Notes: generated by a model not told the origin, from the sequence alone. DNA of 64,000 nt from an uncultured delta proteobacterium (GCA_963789265.1 CAWBKB010000001.1:768001-832000), one strand, 5' to 3'; positions 280-30,634 are shown, counted from the first letter of the stretch. Made by a program: numbers and translations.

Positions 280-2295
280 CTATTTTATGGGCGTACCGGC
301 AGGAATGCTCGGATCCACCTTACAGATTGCGACCTTTCCATCTTTGTCCGCGGCCGCGAGGATCATACCGTGGCTTGTGCCGAATCTCATCTTTCTCGGT
401 TTGAGATTGGCAACGACCAGCACGGTTTCCCCTACCAATTCCGAAGGTTCATAAGATGCTTTAATGCCGGCCAAAACGATGCGGCTTTCACGGCCCAGAT
501 CCACTTCCAGCTTAAGGAGCCGGTCTGAGTTCTCGACCGTGTCTGCTGACTTGACCTTTGCTGCTCGGATGTCTATCTCGGAAAAATCCTCGATGGTAAT
601 CTCATCTTTAAAGGGCGGCGCCTCAGGTGCCTCCTCTGCTTCTTCGTCGGTACCGCTTTGAAGGGCCGATTCCACCAGCTTTTCCATTGCCCGTGGTTCG
701 AGGCGTTCGAGGAGTTTATCAAAAGTCCCTATTTCGCGATTCTCCAAATTAAACGTTGCATCCTCCCAGGTGAGATCTCCCAGTTGCAGGATTTCTTCGA
801 CTCTACGGCAGTACGAGGGAAGGATGGGCTTCAGCAGGACTGTAATTATTCCTATGCAGTTCACCGCGAAGGTGAGATCGTTCCTTGCCCGATCTTGGTC
901 GGTCTTGATCGCGGTCCACGGAGCATTTTGCTGAATGTAATTGTTGGCAAGGTCTGAGATAGATAGGATGCTGCGTGTGACATGGTTGAAACGAAGTTTC
1001 GCATAATCGGTCCTGGCCCTATCGACGTAACCTTCGATCTCCTGCACGAGTGTATGCGCTGAATCGGGCAAGCTCCCGAGTCGCGAGTCCAGCCTCTTGT
1101 TGAGAAAACCGACCGTACGGCTGATGAGATTGGTGATATTGTTCACAAGTTCCGCATTGGTTCGGTTCACAAACTCTTCTATGTTCAAGTCGAGATCGTC
1201 GATGGAGTCACTCATCTTGGTCGAATAATAGTAGCGGAGATACCATGGGTTCAGAGAATCCGCGAACTTTCGAGCTGTTATGAAGGTTCCCCGGCTCTTG
1301 GACATTTTGCGCCCGTCGATGGTGAGAAAACCGTGGACATGGACGGCGGTCGGGGTTCGATACTCGGCGGCCTTCAGTATTGCCGGCCAAAACAAGGTAT
1401 GGAAATACGCTATGTCCTTGCCGATAAAGTGATGAATCTCCGTGTCGGCCGAAGGGTCCATCCAGTAGTCTTGGACTTCTCTGTTCCCTACACGGGCGCA
1501 ATAGTGCTCGGTAGCAGCGATGTACCCTATGGGAGCATCCAACCACACATAGAAATATTTGTTCTCTTCTCCCGGGATCTTGAACCCGAAATAAGGCCCA
1601 TCCCTGGAAATGTCCCAGTCCTGAAGGCCCTCTTCGATCCAGGTATTAACAAAAGCTCGGACTTCAGCTTGCAAATGTCCGGGTTCCACGATCCAATGGC
1701 TCAGGAAATCGCTGAAGTCTTTGAGTTGGAAGAAGAAGTGCTTGGAGGTTCGGAGTGAGGGTGTGGCTCCGCATATCGCGCATCTCGCGTCGAGTAATTC
1801 CGTCGGCCGATATATAGCACCGCATACCTCGCACACGTCCCCATATTGATCGGCGGCTCCGCACTTGGGACACGTCCCCTTAATGTATCTATCGGGGAGG
1901 AAACGCCCGCAGGTATCGCAATAGAATTGCTCGATTTCACGCGTGCTGATATGGCCCTTATCCAGGGCTTTCAGATAGATAGTCTCACAATGGCGCCGAT
2001 TTTCGGGTGAATCAGTGGTGTAGAATTCGTCAAATCCCACTTCAAATTCGTCAAAATCCCTTTTGTGCCTTTCGTGGAACTCATGAACGAGCTGTTGGGG
2101 GCTGATCCCTCTTTTGGTCGCGTTGATCTCGATGGGAGTGCCGTGCGCATCCGACGCGCACACGTAGATCACGTCCTCTCCTATGAGGCGAAGAAATCTC
2201 ACATAGATGTCAGTCTGAATGTATTCCACGAGGTGCCCCAGGTGTACGTCGCCGTTGGCGTAGGGAAGGGCGCTCGTGACGAGGAACTTTGGCAA
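280..2295 (-). CDS. metG: Methionyl-tRNA synthetase with C-terminal tRNA-binding (Trbp111-like) domain
   Basis: ALPYANGDVHLGH (HIGH-like), KMSKS, two Zn knuckles, YVWLDAPIGY, C-terminal OB domain (ANLKPRKMRFGTSHGM). Confidence 0.98.
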   Translation of the reverse strand: MPKFLVTSALPYANGDVHLGHLVEYIQTDIYVRFLRLIGEDVIYVCASDAHGTPIEINATKRGISPQQLVHEFHERHKRDFDEFEVGFDEFYTTDSPENRRHCETIYLKALDKGHISTREIEQFYCDTCGRFLPDRYIKGTCPKCGAADQYGDVCEVCGAIYRPTELLDARCAICGATPSLRTSKHFFFQLKDFSDFLSHWIVEPGHLQAEVRAFVNTWIEEGLQDWDISRDGPYFGFKIPGEENKYFYVWLDAPIGYIAATEHYCARVGNREVQDYWMDPSADTEIHHFIGKDIAYFHTLFWPAILKAAEYRTPTAVHVHGFLTIDGRKMSKSRGTFITARKFADSLNPWYLRYYYSTKMSDSIDDLDLNIEEFVNRTNAELVNNITNLISRTVGFLNKRLDSRLGSLPDSAHTLVQEIEGYVDRARTDYAKLRFNHVTRSILSISDLANNYIQQNAPWTAIKTDQDRARNDLTFAVNCIGIITVLLKPILPSYCRRVEEILQLGDLTWEDATFNLENREIGTFDKLLERLEPRAMEKLVESALQSGTDEEAEEAPEAPPFKDEITIEDFSEIDIRAAKVKSADTVENSDRLLKLEVDLGRESRIVLAGIKASYEPSELVGETVLVVANLKPRKMRFGTSHGMILAAADKDGKVAICKVDPSIPAGTPIK

Positions 2296-14232: not shown

Positions 14233-14959
14233 CTATCCTGTGACGGCAAACTTCTCGGTATTTCTCTTCGGAATTCCTGGAGCCAGGTTGATGCCGGCGG
14301 CGTCCCGATATCCTTGCTGAAAAGCGCCCGCGCTGATCACCCTTCTAGCTGCCCGTTCCATTCTGATGTTAGGGAAGGCCTCGGCCATGTAATTCCGGAT
14401 CGTATGTTCCTTGGCCAAAACCAGCGCTTTGCATCCGCGGTGTTCGGCAGCCCTTACCGTTTGGGTTTGCTCCTGGAACCGTTCTCCGATTCTTTTTACC
14501 GCACCATCCAGATAGGCGTACCTCAGAGAAGCAGTGCTCCAGAACCTGTTCTCACGCTTAAGCCTGGGGAGTGCCCTGTCAACGAGTCTGTTCAGCTCGC
14601 GGAAGAGAAATTGGAACGTGTACACGGCAATCTCAGTATCGGCCGCGGTTCCGATAAACGTCAGGACGGGGTCCGCGTAACACTGCCGACGGATGATGTG
14701 CTCACAGTCGAATCCGTAAGCAACGTGAATGAGCAACCCTTTAACCCAGTTTCTTACCACACCTCCGACTCCCACTGATGCCTCTTTGACGGCGATGGCA
14801 CTCTGCATGTCATCCGTTGGAAGCTCCGCTATGCTCAGGTTATCAGCGCGACAACAGCTCACGGGCCTTCGCAGCGGCCAGAGCAGCCTCATTTTCATTT
14901 GAAGAATTAGAAAGTTCGAAGAGCTTCCGAACTTTCAGAGCAACTTGTTCTCTGGTCAT
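14233..14959 (-). CDS. DUF2786-domain protein (+1 frameshift near 14844)
   Basis: MTREQVALKVRKLFELSNSSNENEAALAAAKARELLSR[Y]NL N-terminus; C-terminal AFQQGYRDA..I.L. Confidence 0.8.
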
Positions 14960-15403: not shown

Positions 15404-15418
15404 ATCAACACGTACAGG

Positions 15419-15606
15419 TTCACAGCGGAAACCGCAGAGTCCGGAGAGAATTTCGTTTTCCCGGCATGACTGCGCGATGATGCACGGCGAATTCCGGTCG
15501 GTGAACCGCGAGACGCGGAGAGGGGAGTGCAGATCTGACTGCACGCGCGAGTGAATCGCACGCAATCGAATAAGCTATCATTTTTCTCTGGTGACTCTGC
15601 GGTGGA
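15419..15606. repeat. TTCACCGC-type inverted-end repeat
   Basis: ttcacagcggaaaccgcagag ... ctctggtgactctgcggtgga; related to 47977-48167. Confidence 0.45.
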
Positions 15607-15688
15607 TCACGATTTTCCGTATGAAAGGTTGCTTCACCGCGAACCAATAATGACTGTGGCTTGGAAACCCGACCCCGCGGGTCCGCGC

Positions 15689-15777
15689 AAAAAAAAGCCG
15701 GACTCGCATCAAGCCCGGCAGTTAGGAGGTAAAGGAGTGTTGAAGTTCTCGTTGTTAATTTAGTGCTTCAACATTCG
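15689..15777 (-). ncRNA. Candidate orphan sRNA with anti-Shine-Dalgarno linker
   Basis: Minus-strand TTGACA (15812-15807) -18 bp- TGnTAGGTT; 5' stem GAAUGUUGAAG/CUUCAACACUC; linker CUUUACCUCCUAA; GC-rich terminator plus U8. Confidence 0.6.
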
Positions 15778-15873
15778 TGCATAACCTATCAAAAAATGAT
15801 GGTATTTGTCAACAAAAAAAGTCTAGAAGCGTGTCGTTTCAGTTTTCCGGGGGCATAGATCTGTTCAAGCCGG

Positions 15874-16037
15874 TGTCATTGCGAGGAATGTAAGGTGGGA
15901 CGGTCCCGCGCCTCGCGGGACAGCCTGCCTATCCGGGATGACGGGCAATCCCGCGTTCCGCGCGGGACGTCCCACTGGCAATCTGAGCGGAGTCTAAAGG
16001 AAGAGATTGCTTCGTCGCTTTGCTCCTCGCAGTGACA
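15874..16037. repeat. TGTCATTGCGAG...CTCGCAGTGACA palindromic repeat containing nested hairpin elements
   Basis: Terminal IR tgtcattgcgagga / tcctcgcagtgaca; inner GTCCCGCGCCTCGCGGGAC (15903-15921) and ATCCCGCGTTCCGCGCGGGAC (15948-15968). Confidence 0.8.
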
Positions 16038-16071
16038 ATTTCCCGCCCGTAATTACTAGGTTTGTAAGAAA

Positions 16072-16533
16072 CTATGAAGCCGGCCTTTTCGGTGAGAGCG
16101 CCTTGTCTAACGATCGATTCCCGAAGAGCCACCCGAGAGCCACCACGTTCAGACCAAGGCTGCCGAATTCGAGGACTCGAGTGAGACCCGAGTCGAGGAA
16201 GCCTTCCTGGCCGAGTCGAACGACGTGAAACAGCAATACAGGCGTGTCCACCATGAGAAAGATGATGGCCGGTATGACAACCCATTTCTTTTCGTTCCAC
16301 AAGGCCAATGCCATAATCAGAACAGGGATCATGGTGACGGCGAAATAGATTGTCTCAAACGTCACGGCACTGGAATAGGGCGGCGGTTCCAAGCCTGCCA
16401 TGTAGATGTAGCAGAGGTACAGGAAGGTCTTCAGGTAGAACCACAGGCCCGCAAACCAGAACGCCAGCGGAAAATCGGCATCAAATCTCCTCTGGGGGAA
16501 CCATTCAAAAGGCATCCATTGTCGATTTTTCAT
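16072..16533 (-). CDS. Hypothetical 4-TM membrane protein
   Basis: ATGA overlap with the glyA stop; four hydrophobic segments. Confidence 0.75.
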
Positions 16534-17789
16534 GATTCTTCCTGTTGTCCTCTCGAATATAAGGGGAACCGATCGCACAACTCGGTGACCTGAGCCTTGA
16601 CCCGAGCGATAATGTCCTCGTCTCCGGGGTTAGTCAATACCTGCGATATGAACGATCCGATCATCCTCATCTCATCAGGCCCCATGTTCCTTGTAGTTAC
16701 TGCCGGCGTGCCGATTCGAATCCCGGAAGCTTTGCTCGGAGGCCGCGAATCAAAGGGGATCGAGTTCTTATTGACGGTTATTCCGGCGCGTTCCAACACT
16801 TCCTGAGCTTCGGCTCCGTCTACAGCCTGGTGTGTCAGGTCAATGAGTATGAGATGGTTGTCCGTGCCGCCGGAGATCAGAGTGAAACCGTCTTCCAGAA
16901 GGCTTTCAGCCAGGCATCGAGCGTTGAGGACAATTTCCTTCTGGTAATCGCGAAACTCCTGCGTCGCGGCTTCGGCAAAGGACACGGCTTTTGCCGCAAT
17001 GACGTGCATCAGGGGGCCTCCCTGCATTCCGGGGAATATGCAGGAGTCTAAAGCCGTCGCGTAATGTTTGCGACACATCACCATCCCACCTCGGGGGCCT
17101 CTAAGGGTCTTGTGGGTGGTTGTCGTGACGAAGTCGGCGTGAGGGATGGGGGATGGATGCAACTCTGCCACAATGAGACCGGCAATATGGGCAATGTCAG
17201 CCATGAGCACCGCGCCTGTCTCCCGGGCAATGTCGGCAAAGGCGCTGTAGTCGATAATTCTCGGGTACGCGCTGGCTCCGGCGATGATCATCCGGGGCCG
17301 ATGTTTGCGTGCAAGATCCCGTACCTGGTCGTAATCGATCCTATGATCGTTGTGCCGCACGGAGTACGGAACCACGCGATAAATCTTGCCTGAAAAATTT
17401 TTCGGATGCCCCATGGACAAATGGCCTCCGTGGGCAAGATCCATCCCCAAATAGGTATCTCCCGGCTTCATGACCGAAAAATAAACCGCCATGTTGGCTT
17501 GAGTGCCGGAGTGGGGCTGAACGTTTACATGATCGCACCCGAAAAGCGCCGCAGCGCGATCCCGCGCCAGATTTTCCACCACATCAGCGTGAATGCAACC
17601 GCCGTAGTATCGTTTGCCAGGGTATCCTTCCGCGTACTTGTTTGTCAGGATGCTACCCTGTGCCTCCATCACTGCCGGAGAAGTGAAATTCTCGGAAGCG
17701 ATCAGTTCCAGGCGGTGCTCCTGTCGGCTCTTTTCATTGGCGATGATTCTGAATATTTCCGGGTCGGTGTGCTCGAGCGGGGTCATCAT
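16530..17789 (-). CDS. glyA: Serine hydroxymethyltransferase
   Basis: [37 protein letters not shown]. Confidence 0.98.
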
Positions 17790-17845
17790 TTTCCTTCGTA
17801 CCGATATGTCAATAGACGATGATGATTCTGATGGTTGTCGGGGGG

Positions 17846-18280
17846 TCAAGGATTTTCAATCCGATCGATTCGCCTCTTATGCCTCCCGCCCTCGAATGAG
17901 GTTACAAGCCAGATCTTAACCATAGAGAGGGCTATTTCCGTTCCGGTAATCCTCCCTCCTATGACAAGCACATTGGCATCGTTGTGGGCTCGACTCATGC
18001 GTGCCTGATATTCGCTGGTGCACAGAGCCGCGCGAATCCCGCCAAACCGGTTGGCCGCCATGGACATACCCAAGCCGGTCCCGCATATAAGAATTCCGCG
18101 AGATGCCTCACCCTTTAGAATCCTTTCACAAAGCAATCTTGCATAGTCCGGATAGTTGCAAGAGATCTCTGTAATGCACCCTACATCCACGACCCTGAAA
18201 CCATCTCGCTCTATGTCCTCTTTCAAGAGGGTCTTCAGGGCGAATCCCGCATGATCGGAGCCTATGAGGATTGTTTCCAT
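17846..18280 (-). CDS. rpiB: Ribose-5-phosphate isomerase B
   Basis: [26 protein letters not shown]. Confidence 0.97.
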
Positions 18281-19524
18281 TATACCACCCGTTTCAGAAC
18301 CAGGCTGGCGTTTTGCCCTCCGAAAGCAAAGCTGTTGGAAAGGCCGTATTCCATTTCCCTTGCAACAGGCTTATTCGGCGTATAATCCAAGTCGCAATCG
18401 GGGTCCGGGGTTTCAAGGTTAATAGTAGGGGGGACCACACCGTTGTTAAGCGCCAATAGGGTATAAATTGCCTCCACCGCGCCCGCAGCTCCTATCATGT
18501 GGCCTGTCATGGATTTTGTCGAACTGATTGAGACTTTTTGGCACGCTGGGCCGAAAAGCCTCTTGATCGCCTGAGTCTCCATCTTGTCGTTAAGATCCGT
18601 AGAGGTCCCGTGGGCATTAATATAGTCGATCCGGGAGGGTTCAATCCCGGCCTCTTCCACAGCTTGCTTCATACACCTGTACGCTCCTTCGCCGTCGGGG
18701 CAGGGCATTACATAGTGATAAGCGTCGTCCGTTGCGCCGTAGCCCACTATCTCTCCCAGTATTTTGGCGCTTCGCCTTTGGGCGTGTTCCAGAGTTTCAA
18801 GAACCAGAATGCCCGCGCCCTCCGAAATTACAAAGCCATCGCGGTCCAGATCGAAGGGGCGGGAAGCCTTGTGAGGCTCCCCGTTGCGGCAGGACAGGGC
18901 CCGTAGCGCGTTGAAAGCGGCAACGGACAGAATTGTTACAACCGCTTCGGTTCCACCAGTTAACATGACATCTGCCCGGCCTTCGCGTACCATTCTGAAA
19001 GCCTCTCCGATGGCGGAGGTGCCGGAGGTGCAAGCATTCACCACTCCGAAATTCGGCCCTTTGAATCCGTACTTGATGGACAGCATGCCCGGAGCCAAAT
19101 TGATAACTGCCTTGGGTATAGTTAAAGGATGTACCCCCTTGGGCCCTTTTTCGTGAACGCCTATCACTCCGATTTCTATGGTGGCCAGTCCTCCTATTCC
19201 CGATCCGACGATTGCGCCGCACCGGTAAGGATCTTCCGGAGGGCTGGGCAAGCCGGACCGGGCGAAAGCTTCCCCGGCGGCTATCATGGCAAACTGTTGA
19301 TAGCGATCCATGCGGCGCAATTCTTTTGTCGGAATGTGGCCCGCAGGATCGAAGTTGCCACGGACTTCTCCGGCTATTTGCGTAGCCAATCGCTCGGCAT
19401 CAAAGAGCGTAATGGGTCCTATGCCTGAACGAGCGGCCATCAAAGCCTCCCAATTAGCTTCAACGCCGCTGCCCAAACATGTGACCACTCCCATTCCCGT
19501 GATGACAACTCTGTGCTGCACCAT
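18280..19524 (-). CDS. fabF: 3-oxoacyl-ACP synthase II
   Basis: NACTSG, NAHGTST, KSMTGHMIGAAG, NSFAFGG. Confidence 0.96.
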   Translation of the reverse strand: MVQHRVVITGMGVVTCLGSGVEANWEALMAARSGIGPITLFDAERLATQIAGEVRGNFDPAGHIPTKELRRMDRYQQFAMIAAGEAFARSGLPSPPEDPYRCGAIVGSGIGGLATIEIGVIGVHEKGPKGVHPLTIPKAVINLAPGMLSIKYGFKGPNFGVVNACTSGTSAIGEAFRMVREGRADVMLTGGTEAVVTILSVAAFNALRALSCRNGEPHKASRPFDLDRDGFVISEGAGILVLETLEHAQRRSAKILGEIVGYGATDDAYHYVMPCPDGEGAYRCMKQAVEEAGIEPSRIDYINAHGTSTDLNDKMETQAIKRLFGPACQKVSISSTKSMTGHMIGAAGAVEAIYTLLALNNGVVPPTINLETPDPDCDLDYTPNKPVAREMEYGLSNSFAFGGQNASLVLKRVV

Positions 19525-30420: not shown

Positions 30421-30634
30421 TACGACACTGTCTCAAAACCCTTGAACACGACGAAATCGTACCACGAATGCCCCTTTTCCCCGGCAATGTATTACCGGGC
30501 TACTGTCCCCGGTCCCTGCGGGGCGCCAGCACTTGAGCCCCATTGGGGCGATTGAGAGTAGCCCGGCACTTTAGTGCCGGGCTGCCATCGTGCCACGATT
30601 CCGAGCATCAAAATAGTTTTGAGACAGTTTCATA
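30421..30634. mobile_element. MITE-like element
   Basis: Perfect 13-bp TIR ACTGTCTCAAAAC (30427-30439 / 30616-30628), extendable with 2 mismatches; internal palindromes; second partial copy at 26194-26290. Confidence 0.7.

Follow-up and report, generated by a model that had tools for sequence, protein, structure and literature searches.

A conserved predicted small RNA with an unpaired anti-Shine–Dalgarno linker in the Desulfomonilaceae

The window analyzed here, the whole 64,000-nucleotide stretch of DNA from an uncultured delta proteobacterium, very probably contains, on its minus strand, a genuine gene specifying a small regulatory RNA (sRNA) of ~88 nt. Related copies recur across the Desulfomonilaceae, a family of sulfate-reducing and dehalogenating bacteria, and a vertically inherited, usually single-copy sRNA gene specific to this family appears to be the best explanation of the sequence data. 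It is the conservation across relatives, rather than any property of the single sequence, that gives the element its more-than-chance status. As to function, we lean toward a reading in which the RNA would be transcribed independently and, probably assisted by Hfq, would base-pair with mRNAs and mask their translation initiation regions (TIRs), an account that we consider reasonably, if not overwhelmingly, probable.

The promoter, 5′ hairpin, linker and GC-rich terminator with eight U residues described in the original prediction are all present on the minus strand between positions 15812 and 15689, in the following arrangement (the basis of each assignment is given in parentheses).

15807..15812, minus strand: −35 box TTGACA (sequence reading and conservation)
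15783..15791, minus strand: extended −10 element TGATAGGTT, consisting of TGn followed by TAGGTT, the latter at 15788-15783
15689..15776, minus strand: predicted sRNA, ~88 nt (fold, homolog lengths, covariance model)
15735..15776, minus strand: 5′ hairpin (sequence, fold, covariation)
15724..15745, minus strand: conserved 22-mer CUUCAACACUCCUUUACCUCCU, read as an anti-translation-initiation-region
15734-15720, minus strand: single-stranded, CU-rich linker CTTTACCTCCTAACT, in RNA CUUUACCUCCUAACU (sequence, fold)
15724..15730, minus strand: ACCUCCU, the anti-Shine–Dalgarno (anti-SD) core within the linker, identical to 7 nt of the 16S rRNA 3′ tail
15689..15719, minus strand: Rho-independent terminator plus U8 (sequence, fold, terminator scan, covariation)

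On the minus strand, the −35 and −10 elements are separated by an 18-nt spacer, the final three bases of which are TGA, and promoter geometry would place the 5′ end of the sRNA at ~15776. The promoter is missing from the list produced by a consensus scan of the window because TAGGTT agrees with TATAAT at only three of six positions, so that the promoter call rests on conservation. The arms of the 5′ hairpin, GAATGTTGAAG at 15776-15766 (RNA, GAAUGUUGAAG) and CTTCAACACTC at 15745-15735 (RNA, CUUCAACACUC), pair at 10 of 11 positions, with one A/C mismatch, and enclose an A-rich loop of 20 nt, AACAACGAGAA. The terminator was recovered by a consensus scan (10 pairs, 7 of them G-C, and T8); its stem reads GCCGGGCTTG-ATG-CGAGTCCGGC at 15719-15697 and is followed by T8 at 15696-15689, which in RNA corresponds to GCCGGGCUUG-AUG-CGAGUCCGGC and U8. 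In the minus-strand RNA, the only frame read that begins with ATG has 4 codons.

The predicted fold of a 94-nt stretch reproduces the same layout of hairpin, linker and terminator, with a minimum free energy of −26.0 kcal/mol, compared with an average of −14.6 (sd 2.7) for dinucleotide shuffles, none of which (0/200) was as stable (z = −4.2). When each of 39 homologs was folded from its predicted start, giving predicted lengths of 79-93 nt (median 88), partition-function calculations left the anti-SD core unpaired with a mean probability of 0.96, and with a probability above 0.8 in 37 of the 39.

The 39 distinct copies were aligned with MAFFT (alignment A1), and a covariance model, R1, was built from A1; the sRNA of the window itself scores 98.5 bits with this model. 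Conservation extends from the −35 box to the U tract, which is retained across A1, while the flanks diverge, with only A/T richness shared upstream. The pattern TTGAC[AT]-N14/15-TGnTAnnnT was found in 37 of the distinct copies and a looser form of it (TGnTAnnn[TC]) in all 39. Part of A1 was gathered with a pattern that requires the linker, so that linker counts in this alignment are biased, and it is in this linker-biased sample that the 22-mer is identical in 23/39 distinct copies, CUUCAACACUCC is present in 31/39 and ACCUC[CU] in 39/39. As a check on the bias, 20 further matches obtained with R1 only, from lower-scoring genera, were inspected, 4 of which proved to be duplicates of A1 members. 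All 20 possess the promoter, the terminator and a 5′ hairpin of differing sequence, and 18 carry CCUCC directly 5′ of the terminator, the exceptions being L121 (ACCUCUU) and L120 (CUCCUUUACACC). Genera with very different stems still carry UUACCUCCU just 5′ of the terminator.

The original prediction had regarded the RNA as an orphan, a view that the distribution of the gene overturns. A blastn search (E <= 1e-10) recovered it in 20 of 36 other Desulfomonilaceae genomes and in none of 24 genomes of the sister family, and R1 extended the count to 65 of 70 Desulfomonilaceae genomes, representing 23 of 26 genera; this family-wide gene also has conserved synteny. The five family genomes in which R1 gave no match comprise four that are 73-93% complete and one, G031, that is 99% complete. 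In the sister family, R1 produced a weak match in 1 of 52 genomes. Across an even phylum sample of 151 genomes (E <= 0.01), the genome of the window and both other sampled members of the family were matched, along with three genomes outside the family, all weakly: two of the three genomes of one other genus and one of the four genomes of another family. An exact-pattern scan for the linker and terminator in one genome per prokaryote species yielded 38 loci, 35 of which belong to metagenome-assembled genomes or genomes with labels such as Desulfomonile tiedjei, Desulfomonilaceae, Desulfomonilales, 'Syntrophaceae' or 'delta proteobacterium'; the remaining loci, two in Treponema and one in Bacteroidales, share the terminator and CU tract only and were left out of the alignments.

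Among the 65 R1-positive genomes, 64 carry one copy and one, G006, which belongs to the genus of the window, carries three. The G006 copies (L072/L006; L069:1503-1600, minus strand; L070:1569-1664, plus strand) have the promoter, hairpin and upstream flank in common and differ in their linkers (UUUACCUCCUAAAA, UUAACCUCUUACAG and AUAUACCUCCAAGG), so that by sequence they look like sibling sRNAs. In another genome (G088), the −10 box and 5′ arm of locus L060 are partially duplicated in tandem (~1289-1467, minus strand); a run of N breaks this duplication, which may be an assembly artifact. Outside the family, in two genomes of genus g54 of the Desulfobacterota family f16, elements of ~85 nt (L087:1503-1587 and L088:~279-364, both plus strand) display a 5′ hairpin, a single-stranded CCUUUUUACCUCCUUGUGAA and a terminator with U8, and lie 3′ of a TonB-dependent receptor gene, not of glyA. 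They score weakly with R1 (E = 2e-4 and 1.2e-3) and could be either distant relatives or convergent anti-SD sRNAs.

Both hairpins covary. In a model-fitted alignment of 55 distinct sequences, 83.9% of the cells at paired positions are paired, a value to be read in light of the alignment leaning toward the structure, and two-sided changes are seen in 12 of the 18 pairs (77 cells), including 7 of 10 pairs in the 5′ helix and 5 of 8 in the terminator. None of 500 column shuffles of this alignment matched the observed values, and sliding the 3′ partners by 1-3 columns left only 19-45% of the cells paired. The model-independent MAFFT alignment A1 gave 87.4% paired cells and nine pairs with changes on both sides; its shuffles reached the observed values in 0/500 cases on four of five measures and in 26/500 on the fifth, further pair types. 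RNAalifold, run on the MAFFT alignment, predicted the terminator alone and not the 5′ hairpin, and the latter was accordingly entered by hand for the pair counting. Covarying stems around an invariant single-stranded stretch are the usual signature of a base-pairing sRNA, and it is this signature that the family would appear to bear.

A second short motif, YUCAAC, in the form CUUCAAC or CCUCAAC, is retained upstream of the anti-SD at a distance of 10-30 nt (for instance, in L110, L112, L037 and L038); it lies in the stem in the genus of the window and in the hairpin loop in genus g22. This suggests a second seed or a protein contact.

The 16S rRNA of this genome ends in ...GGAUCACCUCCUUUCUAAGG, and ACCUCCU matches 7 nt of this tail exactly, which bears out the near-copy of the 16S anti-SD noted in the original prediction; in addition, CACUCCUUU corresponds to CACCUCCUUU of the tail less one C, that is, a one-deletion copy. 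Within the 22-mer, CAC constitutes an anti-GUG and CCUCCU, located 7 nt downstream of CAC, an anti-SD, so that CAC-UCCUUUA-CCUCCU, spanning the stem arm and the linker, is the exact complement of AGGAGG, 7 nt and GUG, which together make up a complete model TIR.

Owing to this complementarity, the plus strand resembles a perfect ribosome-binding site (RBS) with a mini-ORF, and one alternative is that a translated plus-strand ORF (AGGAGGT, 7 nt, GTG; MLKFSLLI) is the functional unit and the minus-strand RNA its cis-antisense regulator. The ORF does exist, with a textbook SD, spacing and GTG start and a length of 8 codons (VLKFSLLI*), but neither its length nor its sequence is conserved beyond the RNA stretch: among 30 homologs that keep GTGTTGAAG, its length varies between 6 and at least 39 codons, and shared residues are limited to the first 3-4, which mirror the conserved RNA. 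Moreover, downstream on the plus strand there is only the convergent end of the membrane protein gene described below, and both conserved signals, promoter and terminator, are oriented toward the minus strand. We therefore rejected the mini-ORF as a gene and regard cis-antisense control of it as scarcely credible.

The features of the window around the element are listed below.

15410-15610: 7-copy repeat (own-genome blastn)
15873..16053, no strand assigned: dispersed GC-rich palindromic repeats, with 40-139 blastn copies per 20-nt bin in their own genome
16072..16533, minus strand: gene for a membrane protein of 153 aa, the upstream neighbor of the sRNA and last gene of the rpiB-glyA operon
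16530..17849, minus strand: glyA, serine hydroxymethyltransferase (Pfam SHMT, E = 4.8e-163)
17846-18280, minus strand: rpiB, upstream of glyA
18280-19524, minus strand: fabF, upstream of rpiB

The next minus-strand ORF downstream of the sRNA, at 14233-14898, encodes a DUF7168 protein (E = 5.7e-17). The 153-aa protein is a predicted multi-pass membrane protein that had no meaningful match in Pfam or NCBIfam. Repeats surround the sRNA in the window, and membership in a dispersed repeat, raised earlier as an objection, was checked with blastn against the same genome: positions 15689-15812 yielded one copy, and the 141-nt sRNA region occurs once in the 6.06-Mb genome, so that the element sits amid repeats and is not one itself. 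The ~260 nt of repeats that separate the glyA operon from the sRNA promoter are an insertion found in the genome of the window only.

The other objection raised earlier, that the sequence is part of a read-through 3′ UTR, holds in part. In 29 of the 39 loci, the sRNA lies directly behind the membrane protein gene on the same strand, with glyA also present in 27. The operon's stop codon lies ~20 nt from the −35 box in the closest relatives, with no terminator in the gap; likewise, a scan of the window shows no terminator-like site between the stop codon (16072) and the sRNA promoter. Since, in the closest relatives, there is no room for a separate terminator, that of the sRNA must also end the glyA operon, and because the terminator is shared, the sRNA sequence must there also form the 3′ end of the operon mRNA; it is probably made in this form in most relatives. 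The element could thus be primarily a 3′ end module of the rpiB-glyA-membrane protein operon, comprising a terminator and a structured 3′ UTR, in which the anti-SD would act in cis or have no role and the promoter would be secondary. A cis effect of this kind, with an anti-SD in the 3′ UTR, is reportedly exerted in icaR of Staphylococcus. However, the −35 and extended −10 elements keep a fixed spacing and are conserved in 37 of 39 copies, amid diverging surroundings, and the whole module, together with its promoter, persists in the 10 of 39 loci that have neither the membrane protein gene nor glyA nearby, including the two extra copies in G006. Furthermore, duplexes between the sRNA and the starts of the genes of its own operon (fabF, rpiB, glyA and the membrane protein) are ordinary, at −9.6 to −13.7 kcal/mol versus a genome median of −12.2 kcal/mol. 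As a full account, the 3′ end module is unlikely, and it is in any case compatible with, and not exclusive of, the preferred reading of an sRNA made from its own promoter.

The search for targets gave no mRNA on energetic grounds within a single genome. A scan for contiguous pairing in the genome of the window found no near-perfect site in trans, the best non-self site pairing at 20 of 25 positions. A first genome-wide duplex scan was dropped because its seed ran into the terminator arm, which inflated the scores through loop-rich duplexes. In a ranking at the RBS level, covering 9,909 RBS-like sites near ORF 5′ ends in the same genome, the best duplex of the real seed reached −27.7 kcal/mol, whereas all eight flank-shuffled seeds with an intact ACCUCCU equaled or exceeded it, with top values of −28.0 to −34.4. 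The shuffled seeds being as good, hybridization energy in one genome identifies no target, and the energy-based prediction in this genome performed no better than its shuffled controls. The top 20 RBS candidates share no common functional theme by Pfam. Several individual candidates were discarded: L091 (187 aa) has no ortholog at E <= 1e-10 in the five genera tested; L098 and L099 have several paralogs, making orthology ambiguous; and for a cytochrome c3 gene, complementarity is not kept, with ranks between the 20th and 58th percentile in four diverged genera.

The top site of the ranking is the initiation region of a gene for a secreted protein of 164 aa with the VOC/glyoxalase fold (G000:C5:160124-160618, minus strand). 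Full-length orthologs with 65-77% identity are present in all 10 other genera tested (L130-L134, L140-L144), and the leader AGGAGGUUGGACGAGC-AUG is near-invariant in most of the 11 genera, with divergence farther upstream. The sRNA of each genome was paired with the TIR of its own ortholog, and the resulting duplex was placed by energy among 2,500 RBS-like sites from the same genome. The site falls within the top 1% in 7 of 11 genera, including three of the five with diverged sRNA flanks, a count in which the own-genome case was chosen as the top match and the related genomes are not independent. Specifically, the percentiles are 0.16, 7.6, 0.56, 0.64, 26 and 0.44 in the six genera with the common seed and 0.32, 0.12, 5.5, 32 and 0.28 in the five with diverged flanks, with four genera thus lying at the 5.5th to 32nd percentile. 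For comparison, when the sRNA flanks were shuffled, 10 of 55 trials put the VOC TIRs in the top 1%, the median percentile being 10.6, and the cytochrome c3 gene, used as a comparator, gave the ranks stated above (20th to 58th percentile). The TIR of the VOC-fold gene as a target of the sRNA is suggestive only.

The outcome of the target search is also pertinent to two explanations that dispense with specific mRNA partners. In one, the RNA would bind a protein, serving as a decoy that titrates a reader of the CU-rich 16S tail or of YUCAAC, such as a ribosomal protein, an rRNA maturation factor or Hfq, and would pair with no mRNA. The conservation of up to 22 contiguous nucleotides, which is more than a short seed needs, the retention of YUCAAC in either a stem or a loop and the failure of the energy ranking to yield a specific mRNA would all agree with such a role. 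Nevertheless, the conserved stretch is the precise complement of an SD, a spacer and a start codon, for which pairing is the simpler explanation, and the VOC lead outperforms the shuffled controls. On the protein side, the analysis yielded no candidate; a search of the genome (95.6% complete) found no CsrA, and the RNA is without GGA motifs. We consider a decoy distinctly unlikely. In the other, an abundant mimic of the 16S 3′ tail would compete generally with the ribosome, binding strong SDs transcriptome-wide and tuning global translation. This idea draws on the exact match of an accessible linker to 7 nt of the tail, on target energies devoid of specificity and on a near-consensus promoter that is not preceded by any conserved operator-like sequence, as would suit constitutively high expression; it is at odds with the conservation of the flanks of the core far beyond the anti-SD, which argues for specific partners, and with the G006 paralogs, whose linkers differ in the manner of sibling sRNAs that have distinct targets. 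A general competitor therefore seems to us quite improbable.

According to the preferred reading, that of a base-pairing sRNA, transcription would start from the gene's own strong sigma-70-type promoter (TTGACA, 17-18 nt, TGnTAnnnT) and end at the Rho-independent terminator. The RNA would then pair with the SD and start-codon region of particular mRNAs, and this pairing would exclude the 30S subunit, such that translation is repressed. Recruitment of Hfq would fall to the U-rich 3′ tail, perhaps together with the A-rich loop. The genome encodes Hfq (PF17209, 85.7 bits, G000:C5:806937-807119), and features typical of Hfq-dependent sRNAs, namely, a 10-bp terminator stem and U8, are present; the A-rich loop (AAC AAC GAG AAC) may also suit Hfq binding, judging by known Hfq motifs.

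A more far-reaching scenario, to which we give little credence, combines several of these elements: the RNA would imitate the 16S tail in a self-masked form, act broadly on translation and be coupled to the glyA operon. Here, the 5′ arm AUGUUGAAG would imitate a start-codon region and keep part of the anti-initiation sequence closed, and the free ACCUCCU would compete with 30S subunits at strong SD sites, with the RNA made both constitutively and as the tail of the mRNA of the glyA operon (one-carbon metabolism). If so, global translation initiation would be coupled to expression of that operon, and the modules of hairpin, UUUACCUCCU and terminator in L087 and L088 would mark a wider, undescribed class.

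A near-universal, usually single-copy sRNA with an invariant anti-SD linker offers a good way into the study of post-transcriptional control in organohalide-respiring and sulfate-reducing Desulfobacterota, and the VOC-fold gene provides a testable target lead. The locus is also a clear instance of a housekeeping operon to whose end a predicted sRNA gene has been fused, and alignment A1 and covariance model R1 could seed a new RNA family.

A full-text literature search found no sRNA described for Desulfomonile or its family, and Rfam 15 at gathering thresholds gave nothing at 15689-15812. Elsewhere in the window, it returned only tRNA and an Acido-Lenti-1 RNA match at 30536-30581 on the minus strand (40.6 bits, threshold 37), the occurrence of which in Desulfomonilaceae is outside the phyla named in the title of that family. 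At E <= 10, the sRNA matched L20_leader with 14.4 bits (threshold 58.7) and RsaOG (RF01775) with 19.1 bits (threshold 50); the latter is the only sRNA family with any score, and its E value of 2.9 is at chance level.

In terms of architecture, three groups of known sRNAs invite comparison. RsaE/RoxS of Firmicutes and alpha-r14/NfeR1 of Rhizobiales expose anti-SD motifs rich in pyrimidines, frequently two or more in the same RNA, and through them bind the RBSs of several mRNAs; these motifs, CCCC or CCUCCUCCC, are mostly located in hairpin loops. The Desulfomonilaceae RNA, which matches no Rfam family, has instead a single linker that unites a copy of the 16S tail with an anti-start codon. The enterobacterial sRNAs of the DapZ/MicL type are embedded in 3′ UTRs and have their own promoters. 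As in that type, the sRNA gene described here is found at the end of an operon with which it has the terminator in common, its sequence probably serving as both mRNA 3′ end and primary transcript, and the terminator is of the Hfq type with a long U tail. Unlike in DapZ/MicL, the promoter is situated just past the stop codon, not within the coding sequence, 10 of the 39 loci are apart from the operon, and there is no sequence relationship.

The third group is the cia-dependent csRNAs (Ccn) of Streptococcus, which, as described (PMC3091779), combine two stem-loops with an intervening unpaired region that contains an anti-SD and an anti-start codon and is proposed and shown to block translation initiation; the RNA reported here is of similar size, with two stem-loops and the linker CAC-N7-CCUCCU. 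Both also occur as multiple sibling copies in some species, here in G006. Nonetheless, there is no sequence or model similarity between the two, the phylum is a different one, and the Desulfomonilaceae gene is usually present as one copy. The promoters of csRNAs carry a CiaR site, whereas the promoter in the Desulfomonilaceae host is TTGACA-N17/18-TGnTAnnnT and not CiaR-dependent. Streptococci are not known to have Hfq, which is present in the Desulfomonilaceae genome analyzed here. Overall, the mechanism proposed for this RNA is one already known, and the sRNA family itself is new.
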